DNA of 64,000 nucleotides from assembly GCA_028289455.1 (NCBI GenBank), contig JANQPN010000074.1, forward strand, positions 2,147-66,146. The letters are read 5' to 3'. Under the pieces are notes generated by a model that saw nothing but the letters and a program-made list of their open reading frames with translations, did no database searches and had not been told where the DNA came from. The DNA is from Wenzhouxiangellaceae bacterium. GTDB lineage: Bacteria > Pseudomonadota > Gammaproteobacteria > Xanthomonadales > Wenzhouxiangellaceae. Shown piece after piece: positions 1,979 through 63,458 of the stretch (its first letter is position 1; each line of letters begins with the position of its first letter). Both the position numbers and the translations under genes were made by a program.

Positions 1979-3351
1979 GGCGAAGTCCTCCGGATTCCAT
2001 TCCCGTTCCCGGTCAGGGATTGATAAGACATGGCAAACAGCCGATAAGCGGTCAGGTAATCCTGCTGGTTATAGGCCACATCCCCATCAGCCAGCAGCGA
2101 CAGCGCAGTGTTGGTGTTAGCGCCTAATCCCTGGTACGCAGTGATCGCTGCGATCACAATTTCACGTGCCGCTTCCAACTCGCCGCCAGCTGATTGAGGC
2201 AGCATAAAACGCACGATATGACTGTCCGAATCGGCCAGGGCAGCCACCAGCAATGCCTTGCTGGCTTGGCCCAGGCTGCCGGTCAACTCGGTCTGCAGAC
2301 TGTCCAGACTGGTTTGCAGATCGGTTAACGATGAAATGATCGACTGTGTGTCCGTGCGTATTTCCCCGGCGGTTTCCTGGGCATCGTCGGCCCGGGTCTG
2401 GGCATCTTCAACGTCGATCTGATTTTCCTGCACCCTCAATTGGATGTCGCTGGAGACGGAAATCAGGTCATTGGCATCGGCCATTAATTCATCCAGCTCA
2501 TCCAGTGCATTTTGTAAATCATTTTCGATGCTGGTCAGATCAGTGCTCAGACTGGTATCTAAATCGCTCAGGCTTGAGATGTTGCTGCTTACTGTAGTCT
2601 GTACGTCATCGACGGAGTCTTGTGACGCCCGGCTGGAGCTGGTGGCATCAACAAAATCACTGAGGTGGTCAGCAATGTTCTCCTGAGTTTCCAATAATGC
2701 TTCAAGGTAGGCATCGCGCTGTTCTTCCAGACACGCGACGGCGCCTAGATAAATAAACTTAAAAGCATCGTTCAAAACCGATTCAACTTTGCAGCTTTCA
2801 GATGCATTGAATCCGCCAATTTCCTGGATACAAACCCAACGTGTCACCGACAGTACCTCACGCACAATGCTCCAGACACTAAAAGCAGCAAAAGTAGTGG
2901 TCGCATTGATCAGAGAACACTGGGAAATGGTGAGTTCGGGTTCGGGGAATTCAATGTTGCGGGTTTGATGGCCAAACTGCATGTCTGCCAGGGCATCGTC
3001 CAGCTCTGCTTCTGCCCGAATCAGGCGTTCTTCCAGACTTGCCAGAGGAGGTGCTCCGGCTGCCAGCATCTCCAGCGTCGGGGTATCCATCAACTGCACG
3101 TCAAGTTGCAGGTTTTGAATCTCCGCCAGACCCTGCATGTTGTCGGTGACCTGCATGGCTGTCTCCATGGCCAATAATGACCGTATTAACAGCGCACGTA
3201 CTGCCTCGCCGTCATTTTGCTGCATCGGTGCCGGCGTCGGGCTGGTAACAGGCGAAGCGGGCGCCTCAGCAGTGGACTTTTGCGCATTCGCGATAGGCGC
3301 CAGCAGCAATATCAGCAGCAGGGCGATTGAATGATGTCGTTTGGAAATCAT
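1975..3351 (-). CDS. Exported helical protein, type A, cassette 1 (unassigned family)
   Basis: ORF 1975..3366. The preferred start is the ATG at 3349-3351 (MISKRHHSIALLLILLLAPIANA-Q), with GAGGAG 7 nt upstream. Its stop overlaps the giant-gene start as ATGA. It is a paralogue of 8628..10052, sharing CL(E/Q)EQRDAYL and four conserved Cys. Confidence 0.85.
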   Translation of the reverse strand: MISKRHHSIALLLILLLAPIANAQKSTAEAPASPVTSPTPAPMQQNDGEAVRALLIRSLLAMETAMQVTDNMQGLAEIQNLQLDVQLMDTPTLEMLAAGAPPLASLEERLIRAEAELDDALADMQFGHQTRNIEFPEPELTISQCSLINATTTFAAFSVWSIVREVLSVTRWVCIQEIGGFNASESCKVESVLNDAFKFIYLGAVACLEEQRDAYLEALLETQENIADHLSDFVDATSSSRASQDSVDDVQTTVSSNISSLSDLDTSLSTDLTSIENDLQNALDELDELMADANDLISVSSDIQLRVQENQIDVEDAQTRADDAQETAGEIRTDTQSIISSLTDLQTSLDSLQTELTGSLGQASKALLVAALADSDSHIVRFMLPQSAGGELEAAREIVIAAITAYQGLGANTNTALSLLADGDVAYNQQDYLTAYRLFAMSYQSLTGNGNGIRRTSP

Positions 3352-3362
3352 GTGACTGCTCC

Positions 3363-4697
3363 TCATTTGCCGTTACCGAAATCAACCAGAGACTGATAAG
3401 CCTGAGCAAACAGCTCATAGGCCGTCAGGTACTCCGAATTGTTATAGGCAACGTCCCCCAGTGCTACCAGAGACAGTGCTGTGCCGGTATCACCCAGATT
3501 CAGATTCTGCAGTGCCAGTACGGCTTGAATCACAATTTCTCTGGCGGTTTCGAGTTGGCCACCGGCTGCAGCAGGTAATGCGTACTCAGGTACTACAAAC
3601 CCGGGACGGGTTAATGCCGCTGCAATGGTGTCCTGATTGACCTGTCCATAACCACTGTTCAGATCACTGGACACGCTATCCAGATCATCCTGAATACTGG
3701 CCACGCTGCTGATTATGCTCTGGGTATCAGTGCGAATTTCTTCAGTGCTTTCCTGTAGATCGGCGGTTGTCGTTTGGACGTCTTCGATGTCAATCTGATT
3801 TTCCTGTACCCGCAGTTGAATATCTGCAGCTATTGAAGCCAGATCGGTCATGTCAGCCAGTAATGTGTCCAGATCCGACAGACTGGTGTCCAGATTGGCA
3901 TCGATGGTTGTGAAACCAGTGTCCAGCTCATCCTGAATCGAGCTGATGCTGGTCATGCTGGTATCCACGTCGGTTTGCAGATCATCCACAGAATCCTGGG
4001 TTGCCCTGCTGGAGGTGGTCACATCATCCACAAATATGTTCAGATAACGACCAATATTTTGAGTCAGCTCCAGGGATGTCTCGCCCTTGGCTGCGCGTTG
4101 CTGATCACGACAGAATTTAGCGTTTTCATATAGCAGATCCGCGGTGTTCTTAGCGAATGACAAGACTACACAGAGCAGTGCACCATTAACACCGTCCACA
4201 CTTTCCAGGCAGGTAAATTCTTTGGCAGCCAGGGCGGCGCCGGCCAGCTTGGAAACAGCTAATTCACTGAACGCAATGGCGCCGGTGGCGTAATCACAGA
4301 ACCCTGGTTCAACATTGACATTGGGAATATCGATTCCACCGTCATCTGCAGCGCGGGTGTTAACTGCCGGTGGTAATGGTGTCTGCAGTAAATGGATGAT
4401 TTCATCATGGTATGTATTAATCAGCTGCTGTAATTCCACCAGCGAATCATCACCGGCATTCAATGCCAACAATTCATCGTCGGACAGTGACTGCAACTGT
4501 GATTGGACATGAGCGGCCGAGTCCAGCAGTTCTGTCCGTCCGCTCAATTCACTGGACAGTTCGATCAACTCGATCAGGTCGGTATATGCCGAGCGGTATT
4601 CAGCGGCAGATTGCGCATGAACAGGCATTGCCCAATTCCACACAAATACACCCACAAGCAGGCTATACAGCATGCTCAATGCATTAAGGCGTTTCAT
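3363..4697 (-). CDS. Exported helical protein, type B, cassette 1 (unassigned family)
   Basis: 444-aa ORF with GGGAG 7 nt upstream of the ATG and signal peptide ..WNWAMPVHA-QS. It is a paralogue of 10058..11413, sharing FCRxxxRAAKGE, SSRATQDSVD and EIRTDTQ. Its stop overlaps the first ATG of the A1 ORF. Confidence 0.9.
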   Translation of the reverse strand: MKRLNALSMLYSLLVGVFVWNWAMPVHAQSAAEYRSAYTDLIELIELSSELSGRTELLDSAAHVQSQLQSLSDDELLALNAGDDSLVELQQLINTYHDEIIHLLQTPLPPAVNTRAADDGGIDIPNVNVEPGFCDYATGAIAFSELAVSKLAGAALAAKEFTCLESVDGVNGALLCVVLSFAKNTADLLYENAKFCRDQQRAAKGETSLELTQNIGRYLNIFVDDVTTSSRATQDSVDDLQTDVDTSMTSISSIQDELDTGFTTIDANLDTSLSDLDTLLADMTDLASIAADIQLRVQENQIDIEDVQTTTADLQESTEEIRTDTQSIISSVASIQDDLDSVSSDLNSGYGQVNQDTIAAALTRPGFVVPEYALPAAAGGQLETAREIVIQAVLALQNLNLGDTGTALSLVALGDVAYNNSEYLTAYELFAQAYQSLVDFGNGK

Positions 4698-4901
4698 CTG
4701 TTAACTCCCTTGGACATCATGTCCTCGCGGTTGTTGGTCCTATAAAAACGGGTGCTGGCACACCTTCTTTTTCATCTAATGGTCAATTCATTTGCTGGTT
4801 TGACCATACGGTTCAGTATACACAATCCAACAGTCTCAATTATGAAGATTTATAGGATTTTTTAATAGCCGGAAAATATTAAAGCAGCTGGTGAGGATCA
4901 G

Positions 4902-4924
4902 GCTTCCAGGCAGTGCCTGGAAGC
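4902..4924 (-). terminator. Stem-loop between the two cassettes (possible terminator or processing site, no U-tract)
   Basis: gcttccaggc-agt-gcctggaagc is a perfect 10-bp stem with a 3-nt loop. It lies 15 nt downstream of the stop of 4939..8631. Confidence 0.3.
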
Positions 4925-4938
4925 TGTTGAAAACACGG

Positions 4939-7900
4939 TTATTGTGTGCACATTGATGGCATCAGCGGGATGACTTCTTCAAATGAATCATCCAGCAGAA
5001 TATCTGTTTCACCGGCCGGTGTTGCAGTGCCGGTTACCCTGAGTTCGCTAAACTGCGCATTGTTGTCATTTACCATGAAGCCGGCGTAACCGAGCGGTTC
5101 ACTGAACATGGCTTCCAGCTCCAGCAGTTCCACGCCATCGATTTCGGCAAAGAAATTCACACCGTCAAAACCCAGGGTAAGATCATAAGGTGTATTCGGC
5201 ACTATCGAGACTACCGGCGCTTCGACCATGGTGGTTTCACCGCCGACCGTCTGGAACAGCCGCCAGGTATTGGCAAATTCATCCATGGCCAGACCGACGA
5301 AACTGGTGTCATCCTGATACCAGCCAACCATGGTTAGCACATCCATGCTGCCGTTGCTGGCAGTGGTTACTGTTACCGTCGATTCAATCTTACAATCCGT
5401 GCAGGCATTGGACATATCAATTGCCGTTCCCATGCCATTGCCCAGCAGGAAGCCGATCAACTGATCATCAACAACCGTCCAGTCGCCATCTGGGTCAAAC
5501 AGCCAGTCGACCGGCAGCCCGGTTTCAAACGGCTCGTAAATCAGGAAACCTTCCTGAACCAGGTCAATGTCGATAAGCGGCAGATTCTCCAGGCTGACCA
5601 ACAGCTGCATGGTGCCATTACGCGGGCTCTCGCTCAGGTTACTTTGCGCCTGAACCGTTGCCGTTTCATCGCCTTCACCAGCGCCGTTGGTCAATATTTC
5701 CAGCCAGTCCTGCTCTTCCACCAGCTGCCAGGTACAACCATCGGTCGCAGCAACATTCAGAGCAAACAATTCACCATCCGGACACAGGCCTAAGGAGGCA
5801 GGGTCTACGTCGAAAGAACATTCCTGCGCATTTTGATTGACGGTCAGAATTTCATCACCGATTAACACCGTTCCGGTCCGGCCTTCCACTGAAGGGTTAT
5901 CCAGCACGGCCAGGGTAACGGTTCCACCACCACTGCCTGATGCGCCATCGGCGATAATAATCCAGCTGTCCTGACTGGTGGCAGTCCAGCTGCAGGCACC
6001 TGGATCACTACCGGGCGCCAGTACATTCACTGGTACATTGTCATCTTCATCAGCAGTCACATTAATAGTCGACTGTTCAAGCGAATAACTGCAGCCGTCC
6101 TGGTTGATGGTGTAATCGAACTCATCACTGATCAGGGTAAAGCTGCGTGCAGGGTTTTCGACGTTGGTTTCGCCGGCGTTGTCACTAACAGTGAATTCCA
6201 GCACGCCGGTTCCGGTGGCTATTTCCAACGGTGATGTGACAGTCACCCATTCAACACTGCTGGTGCCCGCCCATTCGCAGGTTTCATCAGACGGCATAAC
6301 GGTAAAAGAGCCGCTTCCACCATCTACCGGAAAATCGGCACTGTCCATACTAAGGGTAAAGTCACAATCTCCATCCTGACCAACCATAAATACCAGCGGG
6401 TCCTGGGTAACCAGCGTATCGTTCAGGGTAACCATGATGCTGCCGTTACGCGCCTGCGGTTCTCCGGGAGCTGGGTCATATGGATCGGCAGTGAAGTCAA
6501 CCGTGGCAGTTCCTGTTCCGGAGCCTGTAGAAGGGTTGGTAATTGTGATCCAGTCTGAATCTGTGCTGATATCCCACAGACAACTGGTCTGGGTGCTGTT
6601 GACGGTGAAAGAGGGCGTCTGCCCATTGATCAGGCCGGCACTGTCCAACACCACTTCATTGGGATCAGGATCCAGATCCAGATTACACAGGTTCTCATTG
6701 ATGATGCTGAATGTGATGCTGGTTTCTATCAGACTGACTGTATCGGCTCCGGACAGCTCCAATATAAAGGTCTCGGTATTCTCATTAATCGTGTCGCCAA
6801 ACACCGTCAGCACAATGGTGGCTTCGGTGCCACCCGGTAAAAACTGCACACTGCCTGAAGCTGCCTGGTAGTCATCACCCGCCGTGGCAGTGCCATCGAC
6901 AGTGTCGTAATTAACCGTGACAATCCGGTCTATCGCCTCCGCCATGGTCAAAGTAATGAACAAGTCGACGGTTTCTCCCGGAGCCGGTTCATCGACATTA
7001 TCCGGACAGCTGCCTGAACCGCCTATGCCGCAGGAAAAACTGATGTCCGGAGAACTGTCGTCATTGATGATCAACACGGTACCGGTATCACCGCCATTCC
7101 TGATGACGGCATTGTCGGCATCTTCAATCACCATACTGAACAGTTCATTATCTTCAAATTCAGTATCGGAAATGATGGGAATAAATATTGACTGAGACTG
7201 CTCTCCACCACTGACGAACCTCAGTGTGCCTTGCACCGGCGTGTAATCAATGCCGGCTAGTGCTGTATCGTCACGGGGGAAATAAGATACCTCGATAGCC
7301 TCTCCATCCGGTTGTGGGCGATTGATGGTTACTTCCACGGTGGCCAGCGTTCCCTGACCGCGTTGCGGATCACCTTCCAGAATGGATGTGCTGCTGATTT
7401 CCAGTTCAGCAGGCAGGCCAATTCTGTAAACCAGAATATCGCCGTTCAGCTCATCATTACTGGCTCTTACCAGAATTATGCTGCCGTCTGACACAAACTG
7501 AATCTGCCGGTCCCAGTGGCACACACCGGTGAAAATATTAAACGTGACTGACGGTGAAATATCAGCATCCAAAGCCAACCGACCATTCACGCCACAGTCG
7601 TTATTGGCGTCGTCATAACCCAAAACAACGTAATCCTGGGTCGCAGCATTACCTCCTACACGAACATCACCTCCAACGCCAACAAGGCTGGACTGGGTCA
7701 CTATGCTGCCATCCAGCTGAAGATTAGCAGCATAAATTGCGTTGTCTGTATCTCTCCATGCAACCACATATTCGCCATTCTCATAGGCAATTGTGGCGGG
7801 ATCGTGGAAGTTGGAAAGGTCGCTGCCATCGTCCGGGTCAGTGATGCTATCGCTCAACTGCACCGAGTTGCTGATGTTATCGCCGTTCTCACGAATTGTC

Positions 7901-24591: not shown

Positions 24592-25836
24592 TTGTTGACG
24601 CGGTGGAAGCGGGCGATTGTCCATGCGGACATGAACGCTTTTTTTGCCAGCATCGAACAACTGGATGATCCTGCACTAAGAGGCAAACCTGTGGGTGTCA
24701 CCAATGGATTGACGGGCACCTGTGTGATTACTTCTTCGTATGAGGCGCGTGCTTATGGTGTGAAAACCGGCATGCGGCTTAAGGAGGCAGAGCAGATCTG
24801 CCCGGGCTTCATCAGACGGCCCGCCAGGCCGGTGCGTTATGCCGAGCTGTCCACACGCATCATGAATGCGCTTACTGAACGTGTCAGTCCCGAAATGGAG
24901 GTGTTTTCCGTGGACGAGGCCTTTCTGGATGTTACCGCCAGCCAGAAACTGCTGGGGACGCCTGAACAGATCGGCAAACATGTTAAGGACGCGGTATTCG
25001 GGGTTTCAGGCATAAAGTGCAGCGTTGGTATCAGTGAGGGCAAACTCACCGCCAAATGGGCTGCCAAACAGAATAAGCCGGATGGTTTGACTGTTCTGCA
25101 TCCGGATGATGTCAGAACGGCCCTGGCTGACCGGCCCGTGGAGGAAATCTGCGGTATTGCCAAAGGCATGAGCAAATACCTGGCGGCGCATAAAGCCTAT
25201 ACCTGCGGGGATGTGGCAAAGCTACCGATAACCATACTGGCATCGCGCTGGGGCGATATCGGCCGGCGCATGTGGTCGGTATGCCGCGGGCACGATCCGG
25301 CGCCGCTGGAATTTGATATGCCGCCGCCGCAATCCATCGGCCACGGCAAAGTGATGCCGCCCAATACCAAAGAGAAGGAAACCATCAGAACCTATCTGTA
25401 CCACATGGCGGAAAAAGTCGCCGCCAGGCTCAGAAAGCACAACTTCGAAGCCACCCGGTTTTTTGTCGGCATCCGGACAGTGCATGAATGGCAGGCGCAT
25501 AAATACAAATCCGTACCCACCGACGACGGCAAGCTGATTCGATTGATGTGTGAGGATCTGCTGGCCAAGCACTGGGATGGAAGAGGGGCCTTCCAAGTAC
25601 AGGTAACCGCCCTGGACCCCAAAGAAACCGCCTACCAGCATGACTGGCTGCGGGATAATGATCAGCGGAGGAGGGCGCTTAACGCTGCTGTGGATGATAT
25701 TTGTGAGCGTTTTGGGGAGTTCAGCGTGTCACCGGCGCCGTTATTGGCACGGTCGGATATGCCGAATGTGATTGCGCCGGCGTGGCGACCGTTTGGGCAT
25801 AGGCAGACCATACAAGACCAGAATGTAAAAAGTTAA
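24592..25836 (+). CDS. Y-family DNA polymerase (DinB/Pol IV-like, catalytic residues present)
   Basis: 414 aa with a TTG start in the track. Motifs: HADMNAFFASIEQ, GKPVGV, SSYEARAYGVKTGM and SVDEAFLDVT. Confidence 0.85.
   Translation: MLTRWKRAIVHADMNAFFASIEQLDDPALRGKPVGVTNGLTGTCVITSSYEARAYGVKTGMRLKEAEQICPGFIRRPARPVRYAELSTRIMNALTERVSPEMEVFSVDEAFLDVTASQKLLGTPEQIGKHVKDAVFGVSGIKCSVGISEGKLTAKWAAKQNKPDGLTVLHPDDVRTALADRPVEEICGIAKGMSKYLAAHKAYTCGDVAKLPITILASRWGDIGRRMWSVCRGHDPAPLEFDMPPPQSIGHGKVMPPNTKEKETIRTYLYHMAEKVAARLRKHNFEATRFFVGIRTVHEWQAHKYKSVPTDDGKLIRLMCEDLLAKHWDGRGAFQVQVTALDPKETAYQHDWLRDNDQRRRALNAAVDDICERFGEFSVSPAPLLARSDMPNVIAPAWRPFGHRQTIQDQNVKS
25689..25713 (+). repeat. 25-nt direct repeat, copy 1 (inside the polymerase 3' coding region)
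   Basis: tgtggatgatatttgtgagcgtttt matches 25912-25936 at 24 of 25 positions. Confidence 0.9.
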
Positions 25837-25911
25837 TCGGGCACGTCAGAAACTAAATCATGCATAGAGTATGCATTATAACGCTAGCAATGCGCGATTA
25901 GTTTCTACTAA

Positions 25912-25936
25912 TGTGAATGATATTTGTGAGCGTTTT
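25912..25936 (+). repeat. 25-nt direct repeat, copy 2 (intergenic, at the edge of the low-GC island)
   Basis: tgtgaatgatatttgtgagcgtttt would encode ..VNDICERF.., compared with ..VDDICERF.. in the gene. Confidence 0.9.
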
Positions 25937-26006
25937 TTAAATATGGCATAACTGCAGCACAGCTGATTTGGTATATATAGCTTGAAAGTATTAGGATGCT
26001 AATTAG

Positions 26007-26032
26007 CAAGGCTTCAAAAAAAGCCTTGTTTG
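26007..26032. terminator. Hairpin next to the SIR2-like gene stop (possibly a bidirectional terminator)
   Basis: caaggctt-caaaaa-aagccttg followed by TTT on the + strand. It lies 5 nt beyond the minus-strand stop at 26034-26036. Confidence 0.4.
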
Positions 26033-26033
26033 A

Positions 26034-27065
26034 TTATGCCATGGCAAGTCTCATGTTAAACTCGTTAAACATGTCCTTACATTTTGCGTTTGGAGCAGAA
26101 TTGAATATGCTGCGACCAAGGTCTTTTCCATTCTTAGCAATCAACATCTCTCTTACATAATCAATATCATCAACTGGCATATCAAATGCACTGAATATTA
26201 TATCTCCAGACTGAATTATTTTTCTTTCTTTACTATATAGCAAATCCATATTTAATTTGTTAAAACCAAAACCAATAAAAACCACAAGTTTTGATTGCAT
26301 TATCTTTTTGCTAATCAACTCTGTGACACTTTTTTCATTTGTGCTTTCAGTAAATGTCTTTATGTTCTCAGATGCTGAAATTAACTTGTAATAAGAAGTA
26401 TTTCCTTGTCTTTCAAATATATTTTCACCATATTTCAGAAAATCACTTGCATTATTTTCCCAGGGTAGATTACTCAATTTTCCATATGGATGTATGATGT
26501 TTATTTTACTCATAACCTCAGATGCTTTTCCTTCACTTAAATCATAGAAGCTCTTAATAGCATTGAATAAATAATGCTCCAAACACCTATCATAATTAAA
26601 TATAATGAGCGTTAATAAATCCATTTTTTCTTCAAAATCATTGATATTTTCGCAACCTTCTTTAAGTTTAATAAAAAAGTTAGCATGCCAAGTTTTTCTT
26701 CCTGCATCAAGGATATCGCTATGCTTGTAAATAGAGTTAACCTCACCATTTAATATATGATAGGCAATCCCAAGCTTTGAGCATATCGCAATTTCTTTTA
26801 TTTCCTTATTTTCATTAATAAAATTATCAATAGAAGGGGAATTTAAAGCATGCCTTTCTATCATTTTATATGCTTTAGCATAACCGCCTTGGTTTTCCCA
26901 AAACCCAGGAATCATTCTAAGGCAGCTTTTCAAAAAAACAGCACCTGAAGACCCACTATGAGAAAAATCTGTAAAGGTATTATTGATCTTATTCTGAAGC
27001 TGGTAACCTGTTGGCAGGCCAATATCAGCGCTTGCTCCTGCTCCAATAATAAATATATAGCTCAT
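26034..27065 (-). CDS. Standalone SIR2-like (SIR2_2-type) protein, candidate NAD-consuming defence effector
   Basis: 343 aa. Motifs: IFIIGAGASADIGLPTG near the N-terminus, IIFNYDRCLEHYL, IIHPYGKL and VVFIGFGFN. The gene is strongly AT-rich. Hand counts gave 23/60 and 12/60 G+C on two lines, against 35/60 in the polymerase gene. Confidence 0.7.
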   Translation of the reverse strand: MSYIFIIGAGASADIGLPTGYQLQNKINNTFTDFSHSGSSGAVFLKSCLRMIPGFWENQGGYAKAYKMIERHALNSPSIDNFINENKEIKEIAICSKLGIAYHILNGEVNSIYKHSDILDAGRKTWHANFFIKLKEGCENINDFEEKMDLLTLIIFNYDRCLEHYLFNAIKSFYDLSEGKASEVMSKINIIHPYGKLSNLPWENNASDFLKYGENIFERQGNTSYYKLISASENIKTFTESTNEKSVTELISKKIMQSKLVVFIGFGFNKLNMDLLYSKERKIIQSGDIIFSAFDMPVDDIDYVREMLIAKNGKDLGRSIFNSAPNAKCKDMFNEFNMRLAMA

Positions 27066-27203
27066 AGTCTATCCGATACACATGAATTAATTACGCATAA
27101 TTTTCAATATAAAATAGTCTTTGGCTAATCCGATGGAATTCAAATAGACAATAGAGCTCGAACAAAAGCCAATTTAACAGCAAGCGCAAGCGGTGATCTT
27201 TTT

Positions 27204-27905
27204 TTAAAACTGCCGAGGCATTTTAACACTACCTAGTGTAAGCCACAGCGCAAGTGATAACTCCGCAACCAAGCAGGGCATAAGAACATATGGGAACAGT
27301 AAATCTGCCAGCTCCGGCAATACAAACAGCGAAAAACTATTCAGCAAATAGCAAAAACCCGCCACCGACATCAAAAAGCCCAGAAACCTGGGCAGAAAGC
27401 CGGATCTTATAATCAGATTACCGATCAACAGACAGAAGAAGCCGAAAAACACCAGGCTTATCCCAAAGCCCACTGAAAACAGCTCAACAAACGCATACGC
27501 CACCGGATACAAATGTTCTGTGTTTCCCTCAGACACCAACAGCCGTACCGGTGCGAAATGATTCAGCAGGTTTGCCGCTTCAATGGCAATAGCAACCATG
27601 TTAAACATCAAGGCCAGGGCGGCCACGTTTCTGCTTACAGGTTTGAACAAACGGTAAAAGATAAACGCCAGCGGTACAGCGCACGCCACATAGAACAGAT
27701 GCACTGCAAAGCCCAGCCGGTAAAGCGTTTCATTGGCCAGGATATTCTGCATCGTGGCCGTGGCGTCACCATCAACCATCAGCTGCTGACGGACAAACAC
27801 TTCCGCGAAAATGCCGCCGAAAATAATGATCAGGTACAGAACGCCTGCAGTTCTGGCTGCTTGTTGTGGCCAAAAGCCTGTTTCTGCCTGCGTACTCATA
27901 TCCAT
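27204..27905 (-). CDS. DUF4386-family integral membrane protein
   Basis: 233 aa and multi-pass. It carries AARTAGVLYLIIIFGGIFAEVFVRQQLMVDGDATATMQNI, which is typical of the family. Confidence 0.65.
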   Translation of the reverse strand: MDMSTQAETGFWPQQAARTAGVLYLIIIFGGIFAEVFVRQQLMVDGDATATMQNILANETLYRLGFAVHLFYVACAVPLAFIFYRLFKPVSRNVAALALMFNMVAIAIEAANLLNHFAPVRLLVSEGNTEHLYPVAYAFVELFSVGFGISLVFFGFFCLLIGNLIIRSGFLPRFLGFLMSVAGFCYLLNSFSLFVLPELADLLFPYVLMPCLVAELSLALWLTLGSVKMPRQF

Positions 27906-61017: not shown

Positions 61018-61719
61018 TTACTGAGTATCTATTACGGTCAATGTATTCCTAATACGATTGAGCAGCCCCTCTTCAATTGTCGGCCAATCCGGTGAATCCG
61101 TAGTCAGCTCATCAAGTTCTTGCTCGCTAAACCCCTGTTCAGACAAATCATCAATGAAAATAATCATTAACTCTTTTTTTCTGGTTTCATCAGTCAGATA
61201 TACAAGGCGGGCATAACTGAAATGCGGTGGAAAAGTGTAACCTTTGCTTGCCAGGAATTGCCTGGCCAAAGCACCATCAGTGCCCGGTCGCCGTCGGCGG
61301 TTGGGATCATACTCAACCACATACGTATCAATAAAGAACTCAAAACCATCGATGGTTTCCCGCAATGGCGAATCATCGTAGTCATATGAAAAAGGCTGAC
61401 CGGGCAAATAGGCTTCATATTGAACCCAGTAGACGCTCTTTAATTTGTCCTCACTGGTGGTTTCTACAAAAAAATGCTGTTCGGTATCTGCATTTCCATA
61501 AAGAATAAATTTCTGACCTCCAATATGCTGATATGCAGAGTCAAAACGCAACGTGGCAGCCGGATCATGTGTGGATATCAGATCAGAACCGGAGACTGTC
61601 CTGCTGAGACCACTGTATTCAGGCTCCGTAGTGAACCTTCCTCGATCTGAGTAATACCAGTGGGCAATACTCACACTGATAACAACAAACACGAGAATTA
61701 TTAGAATAACTTTTTTCAT
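61018..61719 (-). CDS. Hypothetical membrane-anchored protein
   Basis: 233 aa with an N-terminal TM helix (MKKVILIILVFVVISVSIAHWYY). I see no recognisable motif. Confidence 0.6.
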   Translation of the reverse strand: MKKVILIILVFVVISVSIAHWYYSDRGRFTTEPEYSGLSRTVSGSDLISTHDPAATLRFDSAYQHIGGQKFILYGNADTEQHFFVETTSEDKLKSVYWVQYEAYLPGQPFSYDYDDSPLRETIDGFEFFIDTYVVEYDPNRRRRPGTDGALARQFLASKGYTFPPHFSYARLVYLTDETRKKELMIIFIDDLSEQGFSEQELDELTTDSPDWPTIEEGLLNRIRNTLTVIDTQ

Positions 61720-61790
61720 AAGTAATTGCTGCTACCCATACAAACCAGTGCAGACCACATAAAACCAGCAACTTTGCGCTTAGACGCCAG

Positions 61791-63425
61791 TTACTCGAAG
61801 CCATTTATAAAGAAAACCTCTTCTAAACCACCATAGATAACATATAGCTCACCAGCCTCATCTCTTCCATCCGGATCTGCTTCAAAAGCACTAATTATAA
61901 AGTCATCAACACCATCTCTATTCATATCACCAATTTTGGTAGAAAGAGATACTGAATCAAAAGGATCAATACCATGATATATAACACTGTCAATATCATC
62001 TAAATTACTTAATTCGATAGCATCAGGGAGATTTGCTCCTCCGTGTATCAAATATATTTTTCCTGCATTGATATTGCCATTTGGCTCTGCACCACCTGCA
62101 CCAATTATAATGTCGTCGAAACCATCAGCATTCACATCACCTGCTGCATTAACATTTCCTGAAAAATCAGATTCTGCAGCGCCATTAATAATTACACCGT
62201 TTACAAAATTGATGTTATTTATTTCTGGTAAGTTAAACTCCGAGGGGAGGTTTTCGCTTCCATATATCAAATAACTTTGGCCTGAAGCGTTTGCATTATT
62301 GGGGCTCGCTAGAGTAGCCCCTATTAAAATATCATCAAGCCCATCATCATTCACATCACCAGCGTTACTAATCGAAGAACCACTTTGATTACCTTCTTGA
62401 GTCCCGGTAATAAGCACACCACTAGCGCTACCGGGCTGATTAAGCTCGCTTAAATCAATTTCATTTGGTAAGTTTTCACTTCCATAAATAATAAAAATCC
62501 CACCAACATTTGGCAATGAATCAACTTCAAGGTTAGGCGTGGATGTTAAAATATCTGAAATACCATCGCCATTAATATCCCCTATAAAATTTACAGGATT
62601 CGTTCTAAACGCTATCGTTGCTCCAATACCATAAAGAACAACACCGCCATTTTGATCGATAACATATTGATTTAAATCAATAGTTTCTGGTAATTGATCA
62701 CTGCCAAAAATAATAAATGTATGATCAACTAATTCTCCGGTTATTGGATGTTCAGCGCGAGTTCCTAAAATTAAATCGTTAACACCATCATTATTAAAAT
62801 CACCCCCACCATCTATACTATTACCAAGCCTGCCTAATGAATTAAAGCCATTGATCAAAATACCTGGTACTCCATTTTCTAAATTCAGCAAACTCACATT
62901 TATTATTTCGGGAAAGTTTTTCTGCCCATAGACGACATACACTTCTCCTGCGGTTAGCATCCCACCTGGGTCCGCCATGTCTGCACCTATCGCAATATCA
63001 TCTATTCCATCATTATTGATATCACCTGCATTAGATACAGTAATACCTAACACATCATTCATATCAATTCCGTTTATTGTGATTCCTGCTAATGAGGGGT
63101 TTGTTGGATTTAGATTTGTAAGTTCTATTACAGGTGGGAGAGACTCATTTCCATAAATGACATAGGCTTGCCCTGAACCAAAAACATTATTTGGATCAGC
63201 AAATGGCGCGCCGATTAATATATCAGGCATTCCATCACCGTTAACATCACCAGAAAAACTAACACTTCTTCCAGCCTCATCACCATTAAAAACCCCATTT
63301 ATTAATATCCCTGTCGGACCATCAGGTTGATTAAGCATGTTAAGCTCAAAGATTCTTGGAAATACCTGCGTATATCCAATAGAACAGTAAAGAAGGCATG
63401 AAAGTATAAATAGCTGATACTTCAT
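61791..63425 (-). CDS. Exported FG-GAP repeat (integrin-alpha-like beta-propeller) protein
   Basis: Repeated GD(V/I)N(G/D/N)DG.(D/P)D(I/L).IG... units are each followed by G..Y(V/L)IYG. The start is uncertain (63452 or MKYQLFILSCLL at 63425). The gene is AT-rich (hand counts 23/60 and 18/60 G+C). Confidence 0.85.
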   Translation of the reverse strand: MKYQLFILSCLLYCSIGYTQVFPRIFELNMLNQPDGPTGILINGVFNGDEAGRSVSFSGDVNGDGMPDILIGAPFADPNNVFGSGQAYVIYGNESLPPVIELTNLNPTNPSLAGITINGIDMNDVLGITVSNAGDINNDGIDDIAIGADMADPGGMLTAGEVYVVYGQKNFPEIINVSLLNLENGVPGILINGFNSLGRLGNSIDGGGDFNNDGVNDLILGTRAEHPITGELVDHTFIIFGSDQLPETIDLNQYVIDQNGGVVLYGIGATIAFRTNPVNFIGDINGDGISDILTSTPNLEVDSLPNVGGIFIIYGSENLPNEIDLSELNQPGSASGVLITGTQEGNQSGSSISNAGDVNDDGLDDILIGATLASPNNANASGQSYLIYGSENLPSEFNLPEINNINFVNGVIINGAAESDFSGNVNAAGDVNADGFDDIIIGAGGAEPNGNINAGKIYLIHGGANLPDAIELSNLDDIDSVIYHGIDPFDSVSLSTKIGDMNRDGVDDFIISAFEADPDGRDEAGELYVIYGGLEEVFFINGFE

Positions 63426-63458
63426 TCTAAATACATAATTCATCACAAACACTTAACT

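Follow-up and report, generated by a model that had tools for sequence, protein, structure and literature searches.

A solitary SIR2-like gene in an AT-rich islet of a Wenzhouxiangellaceae bacterium: a candidate one-gene NAD+-depleting defence protein of a large unnamed family

What is the role of a SIR2-like protein that is encoded alone, with neither a fused sensor domain nor a partner gene? The question is raised by a stretch of 64,000 nucleotides from a Wenzhouxiangellaceae bacterium (contig JANQPN010000074.1, positions 2,147 to 66,146), referred to here as the window. The SIR2-like gene occupies positions 26034-27065 on the minus strand, starts with ATG, and is an intact open reading frame (ORF) of 343 codons, in agreement with the length, strand, and protein size given by a first-pass annotation of the sequence. 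That annotation regarded the gene as a horizontally acquired, compact candidate for defence or abortive infection (Abi). The analysis presented here indicates that the product is best filed as a new, divergent member of a kind already known, the solitary SIR2_2/SIRim proteins, within a large unnamed subfamily. Its most probable role, at somewhat better than an even chance, is that of a self-contained, one-gene NAD+-depleting Abi defence.

The AlphaFold2 model, computed with 32 homologues, has a predicted local distance difference test score (pLDDT) of 87.4 and a predicted template modelling score (pTM) of 0.89. It is composed of one six-stranded Rossmann domain and a helical insert. The strands at residues 3-7, 151-155, 189-191, 260-264, 288-292, and 321-324 form one Rossmann sheet, and residues ~20-150 form the all-helical insert of ~130 residues. 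Strand 3-7 is followed by the NAD loop GAGAS (G8-A-G-A-S12), and the catalytic motifs are located at the C-terminal ends of strands 1-3. All four motifs quoted in the first-pass annotation are present, namely IFIIGAGASADIGLPTG at residues 4-20, IIFNYDRCLEHYL at 154-166, IIHPYGKL at 190-197, and VVFIGFGFN at 260-268. The candidate catalytic residues N157-Y-D159 and H192 are retained in the protein. H192 is putatively catalytic, judged from its spacing and its place after strand 189-191 rather than from a residue-level superposition. The model contains no fused sensor domain, as had been proposed. The C-terminal 150 residues, where a hidden sensor fold had been considered, hold no such fold and supply strands 4-6 of the Rossmann sheet.

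When the model was compared with the PDB by Foldseek, the top 41 matches were all SIR2 folds. The SIR2 subunit of E. coli SIR2-HerA ranked first (E=4.6e-4), followed by human FAM118B and then by SPARSA, SIRT2, ThsA, CobB, and AVAST5. The best of these matches are defence or immune types (SIR2-HerA, FAM118B, SPARSA, ThsA, and AVAST5). At the sequence level, the protein matches Pfam SIR2_2 (PF13289) with E=9e-4 and 19.8 bits. Several PADLOC SIR2 models match it weakly, the Aga_SIR2 match spanning only residues 3-33 with the NAD loop, and NCBIfam gave no match. The profile of the protein family reaches KomC, a SIR2 NADase, as the sole PDB sequence family (E=9e-6), via the GAGxS, NYDR.iE, and F.G(F/Y)...N motifs. 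NYDR aligns here with the NYDR of KomC. Fold and profile matches alike bear out the SIR2 fold that had been recognised from the motifs.

The protein contains no CxxC pairs and no zinc module and has a helical small domain instead, a feature described for SIR2_2 proteins (PMC12700824). Because the CxxC pairs and the zinc module are absent, the modelled protein can be placed in the SIR2_2/'SIRim' branch of the sirtuin superfamily. All bacterial antiphage SIR2 proteins known to date fall within it, and a published survey found 12-fold more defence genes near its members than near those of the sirtuin branch.

The window protein is alone in its 90% identity cluster, with no relative closer than 36% identity. 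When 1.84 billion representatives were searched exhaustively with a profile, however, 3,240 clusters at 50% identity were retrieved with E<=1e-30 and 8,205 with E<=1e-10. The best 150 of the family clusters are all 319-377 residues long and match from end to end. Pfam SIR2_2 is matched by 13 of 32 members at E<=0.01 (best 6.6e-7), and the pAgo-associated PADLOC model Aga_SIR2 by 28 of the 32, mostly via the NAD loop (best E=2e-12). The family is a divergent SIR2_2 subfamily at the edge of the Pfam model. It is large, uniform, and so far unnamed and uncharacterised, and its members are solitary proteins of ~350 residues.

Among 141 representatives of less than 50% mutual identity, 42 positions are at least 95% conserved. 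They include G8-A-G-A-S12, S78-I-D80, K97, E108, W126, F156-N-Y-D-R-C161, E163, H192-P-Y-G195, T237-F-x-E240, G265-F266, N272, and C329. N157 and D159 are conserved in 100% and H192 in 97% of the representatives. The window protein retains 38 of the 42 near-invariant positions, every catalytic candidate among them, and on the basis of its sequence it looks functional rather than decayed. The family has no zinc ribbon but does have conserved cysteines: C161 is present in 98% and C329 in 97% of the 141 representatives, and C95 in at least 90% of the 32 members.

Whether the gene stands alone throughout the family was examined at 80 loci fetched from the 454 species representatives that encode a relative; ORFs were called and neighbours were clustered (76 loci). 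No neighbour cluster was common to more than 8 of the 76 loci, and those few lie at scattered positions. No conserved small ORF (25-90 residues) was present within 450 nucleotides on either side of the family gene. In the window, none of the 10 proteins scanned, 8 of which are encoded within ~6 kb of the gene, matched a PADLOC model at E<=1e-3. What is inherited is therefore a single gene, and the annotation's description of an autonomous gene with no partner nearby holds both in the window and in the 76 loci. The 132 immediate neighbours match 119 Pfam families, nearly all of them once each, and HerA is not among the neighbour families listed. The adjacency to a Y-family DNA polymerase, to which the annotation drew attention, exists at this locus but does not recur in the family, and it is not functional. 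A ThsB-type TIR domain is encoded by 2 of the 132 immediate neighbours (best E=1.4e-10), which may mean that TIR proteins accompany a small number of family members, in an arrangement like that of Thoeris but without SLOG.

The base composition of the gene is foreign to its surroundings. Its G+C content is 0.317 and that of the segment 25837-27203 is 0.326, whereas the remainder of the window has 0.497. Of all 1032-nucleotide windows, the lowest G+C (0.305) falls at the SIR2-like locus, ~4.5 standard deviations (SD) under the mean (0.493, SD 0.042). The low-G+C island that had been estimated from hand counts is thus real, and its limits, from the polymerase stop to the DUF4386 stop, are accurate by segment composition. 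The same bias is seen across the family: at 68 of 70 genome loci (median difference -0.108, with 20 loci below -0.15) and at all 28 loci from IMG/VR, the family gene is richer in A+T than the DNA that flanks it.

The distribution of the family is patchy. It occurs in 454 of 185,579 species representatives (~0.24%), which span Pseudomonadota, Planctomycetota, Chlorobiota, Nitrospirota, Bacteroidota, Cyanobacteria, Verrucomicrobiota, Acidobacteriota, and lineages of the candidate phyla radiation (CPR). Some members are cargo of temperate phages, since major head protein, portal, head protease, CI-like repressor, and integrase PHROGs lie within three genes of the family gene on 28 IMG/VR contigs. 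In a group of related contigs of this set (L106-L110), the family gene directly adjoins the head module, an unusual spot for cargo, with genes of ~380-390, ~220, and ~425 codons on the opposite strand as neighbours; matches to PHROGs for the major head protein, head maturation protease, and portal were obtained for the pooled neighbours and not gene by gene.

The family is also present on 14 rhizobial megaplasmids. On a Rhizobium plasmid a member adjoins an IS66 element, and on plasmid pAt of Agrobacterium fabrum C58 a member lies near a restriction endonuclease gene and genes for an ATP-dependent endonuclease and helicase pair. That the family is found in prophages and on plasmids fits a conflict gene. 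The pAt member is ATU_RS24105, annotated as hypothetical; the surrounding stretch (L081, 25850-42716) also encodes a Fic protein, and its endonuclease and helicase pair looks Gabija-like. The stretch is likely a defence island and, since the plasmid is well studied, a convenient place to begin experiments.

A minimal autonomous SIR2 protein is already known as an idea, for which AbiH and sole-Sir2 are the precedents. AbiH (PF14253), ~346 residues in length, is a single-gene Abi system of Lactococcus lactis that was cloned in 1996; its fold has since been assigned to the SIRim type, and a mechanism by NAD+ depletion has been proposed. Like the window gene, it is a single gene encoding a single protein with a SIR2-like/SIRim fold and no fused sensor, and it is associated with mobile elements. 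The single-gene organisation is shared by the family as a whole, which has no recurrent partner or small ORF. However, the AbiH profile PF14253 gave no match to the window protein at E<=1, and neither did the PADLOC AbiH model. PF14253 is matched by only 1 of 32 family members, and weakly (E=4e-4). The window protein therefore belongs to a different subfamily, which has invariant motifs of its own (SIDNF, K97, E108, W126, TFTE, and C329).

Sole-Sir2, a CRISPR-supervised immune system, is likewise a standalone Sir2-like one-gene system. NADase activity was shown in vitro, and protection of E. coli from T2 and T4 was observed with a close homologue (bioRxiv 10.1101/2024.12.27.630466). Compared by description, sole-Sir2 has ~440 residues and is composed of an N-terminal module, the proposed sensor, and a C-terminal Sir2 domain, whereas the window protein is taken up over its whole 343 residues, from residue 3 onwards, by the Sir2 fold and has no N-terminal module. 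The window protein may work like AbiH or sole-Sir2 but belongs to neither, in the latter case as judged from that description.

The closest solved structure by sequence is KomC of the Kongming system (PDB 8zsf), also a small SIR2-domain protein (264-residue chain). KomC is without most of the helical insert and acts in a KomBC filament that is triggered by deoxyinosine triphosphate (dITP) made with KomA. Neither KomA, a deaminase, nor KomB, a Ham1-like nucleoside triphosphate pyrophosphatase, is linked to the gene in the window or in the family loci. The best structural matches, SIR2-HerA (Nezha; PDB 8uae and 8sub) and FAM118B (PDB 9r0p), with E=4.6e-4 to 6.6e-4, are zinc-less SIR2_2 folds with a helical subdomain, FAM118B being of similar size to the window protein. 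Both are regulated by oligomeric assembly. However, the TM-scores are 0.40-0.45 at 12-13% identity, the window contains no HerA gene, and FAM118 is a vertebrate-specific clade.

DSR2, ThsA, and SPARSA share the SIR2_2 catalytic core, and those systems deplete NAD+ on phage sensing. Each has a dedicated sensor (the DSR2 C-terminal domain, SLOG/Macro, and APAZ/pAgo, respectively), but none is found in the window protein or its locus. The window protein has no SLOG/Macro fusion and there is no TIR gene among the scanned window neighbours, unlike Thoeris; there is no APAZ domain and no pAgo gene nearby, unlike SPARSA. DSR1 and DSR2 comprise ~1000 residues with a C-terminal sensor region, in contrast to one domain of 343 residues.

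The defence reading is favoured because of the defence-type SIR2 fold, the intact catalytic set, solitary inheritance, foreign composition, carriage by prophages and plasmids, and the precedents of solitary SIR2 proteins. A NADase activity, a trigger, and a defence phenotype are what we infer for the SIR2-like protein on these grounds. The protein has a Rossmann core that binds NAD+, in which the GAGAS loop and a putative N157/D159/H192 catalytic set are found, and the helical subdomain of ~130 residues takes the place of the zinc module of deacetylase sirtuins. Its family spreads by horizontal transfer of the single gene, to chromosomes as well as to temperate phages and megaplasmids. The enzyme would be kept inactive in uninfected cells until a phage-derived cue, either a protein or a nucleotide, binds the family-specific helical subdomain and activates it. 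Activation would probably be coupled to oligomerisation, and the activated enzyme would hydrolyse NAD+, leading to arrest of the infected cell.

Gating by ligand- or protein-induced oligomerisation via the helical insert is suggested by analogy, because other SIR2_2 proteins are gated by assembly; these include KomBC filaments, SIR2-HerA, FAM118B, AVAST5, and ThsA. A more specific proposal, which is possible but well short of an even chance, is that the family represents the smallest self-contained SIR2 immune receptor-effector, in which the ~130-residue insert itself senses a phage protein or nucleotide. The insert, which holds the family-specific invariant residues S78-I-D80, K97, E108, and W126, would then respond by induced oligomerisation without a partner.

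The SIR2-like gene is flanked by two spacers that complete the islet. The left spacer, at 25837-26033 between the polymerase stop and the SIR2 stop, is AT-rich (34-38% G+C), with G+C of 0.38 at 25837-25936 and 0.34 at 25937-26033; the polymerase end (25737-25836) has 0.52. The upstream spacer of the SIR2-like gene, at 27066-27203 on the minus strand, is 138 nucleotides long with G+C of 0.341, forms the right edge of the islet, and stops exactly at the stop codon of the DUF4386 gene, whose G+C is 0.44-0.50. The composition thus changes sharply at both neighbouring stop codons. The upstream spacer presumably carries the gene's own promoter; a consensus promoter scan reported none in 27066-27203, and its count for the region did not exceed that obtained with shuffles.

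A perfect 8-bp inverted repeat, CAAGGCTT / AAGCCTTG, is located at 26007-26028 and ends 5 nucleotides 3' of the SIR2 stop codon. It is likely a bidirectional terminator between the convergent polymerase and SIR2 genes, because its RNA folds (-14.4 and -17.0 kcal/mol) are far better than those of shuffles (z = -3.7 and -3.1). A simple terminator scan did not report this repeat.

The left neighbour (24592-25836) encodes a Y-family DNA polymerase with IMS and IMS_C domains (E=3e-44) and is convergent to the SIR2-like gene. The right neighbour (27204-27905) is a DUF4386 membrane-protein gene (E=3e-50) in tandem with the SIR2-like gene, and a beta-lactamase-family gene comes after it. Both neighbours had been named correctly in the first-pass annotation. 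No tRNA, tmRNA, or Rfam family was found in the window. Further acquired genes may lie in two other patches, where the G+C is also low (0.36-0.40). One lies at 61018-63452 on the minus strand and contains a 233-codon ORF without a Pfam match and the gene of a 553-residue FG-GAP repeat protein; the other, at 14780-16672 on the plus strand, contains a 630-codon ORF without a Pfam or PADLOC match.

The closest relative of the host that was found is the metagenome-assembled genome (MAG) OFTM154, whose polymerase is 86% identical. On its contig JAJFKX010000020.1 (L083), synteny is kept upstream (DUF4760, one gene, and the polymerase), and a Na+/H+ exchanger gene stands downstream of the polymerase in place of the SIR2 and DUF4386 genes. 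The SIR2-like gene is absent from this equivalent site, which, together with the foreign composition, supports the horizontal acquisition proposed earlier. OFTM154 carries its own distant family member (34% identical) on another contig, JAJFKX010000049.1 (L008). Because it has a member elsewhere but none beside the polymerase, the family seems to have been gained independently at different sites in related genomes.

The polymerase 3' end left a trace in the islet. A 25-nucleotide relic copy lies on the plus strand at 25912-25936, 75 nucleotides beyond the polymerase stop and at the left edge of the most AT-rich DNA. It was detected by repeat search, local alignment, and BLAST (E=1.8e-6). It matches its source within the polymerase gene (25689-25713, plus strand; repeat search and alignment) at 24 of 25 positions, compared with 20 of 25 for the best of 30 shuffles. 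The source encodes VDDICERF, and the relic reads VNDICERF followed by LNMA and a stop. In OFTM154, a second copy of the last ~130 nucleotides of the polymerase, ~87% identical, is located beyond the exchanger (L083, 9092-9221 versus 11188-11312). The duplications in the window and in L083 start at the same base (TGTGGAT...). Because the polymerase 3' end is duplicated downstream from the same base in two related genomes, these alignments suggest a hotspot at which integration or recombination recurs and the cargo differs from genome to genome.

A precise empty site was not found: in the sole syntenic relative (L083) the DNA that follows the polymerase is rearranged, and the polymerase genes with 64-75% identity (P0123, P0124, and P0127) lie in LexA/S24-linked operons that are not syntenic. 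A 16-nucleotide imperfect direct repeat (14 of 16; 25926-25941 and 27193-27208) was considered as a target-site duplication and rejected, being short, AT-rich, and within the range of chance matches. An origin as an integron cassette was also considered; there was no integrase among the neighbours scanned, and no search with a dedicated attC model was made. Separately, two Logan contigs that carry a polymerase relative (L085/L086) contain a four-gene cluster at 2343-6766, upstream of an S24-peptidase/polymerase operon, which encodes a D12-class methyltransferase, an unknown protein, a GHMP-kinase-like protein, and a Ham1-like protein with AAA domains. The contig also carries genes for coupling proteins of a type IV secretion system (T4SS), and the cluster may belong to a conjugative element and serve as a module for defence or for nucleotide modification.

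Several observations weigh against an NAD+-depleting defence. The window itself is no defence island. The immediate neighbours in the family are mostly ordinary metabolic and transport genes (ribonucleotide reductase, MurJ, urocanase, queuosine synthesis, and transporters). Defence genes are few among the 132 (ThsB_TIR twice, Cas3, DRT8, PDC-S05, and mad), and defence-island enrichment is not demonstrated by the scoring, which covered the +/-1 neighbours of the genome loci and the +/-3 neighbours of the viral loci without a control set. A tblastn search of 50,697 GenBank phage records and a search of BFVD viral structures returned nothing significant. The Foldseek TM-scores are modest (0.40-0.45), the protein falls under the PF13289 gathering score (19.8 versus 24.5 bits), and no Pfam, NCBIfam, or PADLOC model is dedicated to the family. 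In addition, the window protein deviates at four near-invariant positions, with D14 for E, S198 for G, I264 for L, and P297 for S. The idea of a compact defence or Abi gene stands on the fold, the catalytic residues, the solitary unit, and the foreign origin; the survey of homologues for defence islands gave no consistent setting, with neighbours that are heterogeneous and mostly ordinary.

The ordinary character of most immediate neighbours, the lack of demonstrated island enrichment, and the absence of defence genes at the window locus would also suit a non-immune protein. It might perform protein ADP-ribosylation or deacylation, take part in NAD-linked regulation, or benefit a mobile element through addiction or competition between elements. 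We regard such a role as unlikely. The protein is without the zinc module needed by canonical deacetylase sirtuins, which places it in the SIR2_2/SIRim branch, to which all known bacterial antiphage SIR2 proteins belong and where the published survey found defence genes in excess. The patchy spread, foreign composition, and carriage by prophages and plasmids are unlike those of a housekeeping enzyme, and no conserved operon partner points to a pathway.

The protein might instead be the orphan effector of a ligand-gated system, a SIR2 NADase like KomC or ThsA whose signal-makers are unlinked or are supplied by other defence systems. KomC, to which alone among PDB sequence families the family profile extends, is reported to work only in complex with KomB and to respond to dITP (PMC13454610), and ThsB-type TIR domains do occur in the two neighbours described above. 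However, no partner of any kind recurs among the 76 loci, and no Ham1/ITPase-like, deaminase, TIR, or cyclase gene adjoins the window gene. Movement into prophages and plasmids as a single unit is also hard to square with dependence on unlinked partners, and this explanation seems to us improbable, with a lower chance than a non-immune role. Least probable is that the gene is a decaying passenger, the inactive relic of a once-functional gene that was kept by chance after insertion. Its isolation as the sole member of a 90% cluster with a nearest relative at 36%, the four changed positions, and the lack of a convincing promoter agree with decay. Against it, the ORF is intact over its full length and retains every catalytic motif and 38 of the 42 near-invariant residues, the fold is predicted with confidence, and the gene still has an upstream spacer to itself, with a stable hairpin close behind its stop codon.

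For this genome alone, the finding amounts to one horizontally acquired accessory gene. The family, being large, uniform, and minimal in architecture, would lend itself well to work on the gating of SIR2 NADases, although specialists would not be surprised by its existence. If it is shown to defend, it would present a stripped-down case of how a lethal SIR2 NADase stays silent and is then triggered without a dedicated sensor domain; the same gating question stands for AbiH nearly 30 years after its discovery. If the family defends its hosts, a very common and very small one-gene NAD+-depletion system would join the catalogue of defence systems. If the helical insert is itself the sensor, the family would prove to be a widespread one-gene form of defence that had gone unrecognised, and SIR2 NADase gating would have a minimal model.

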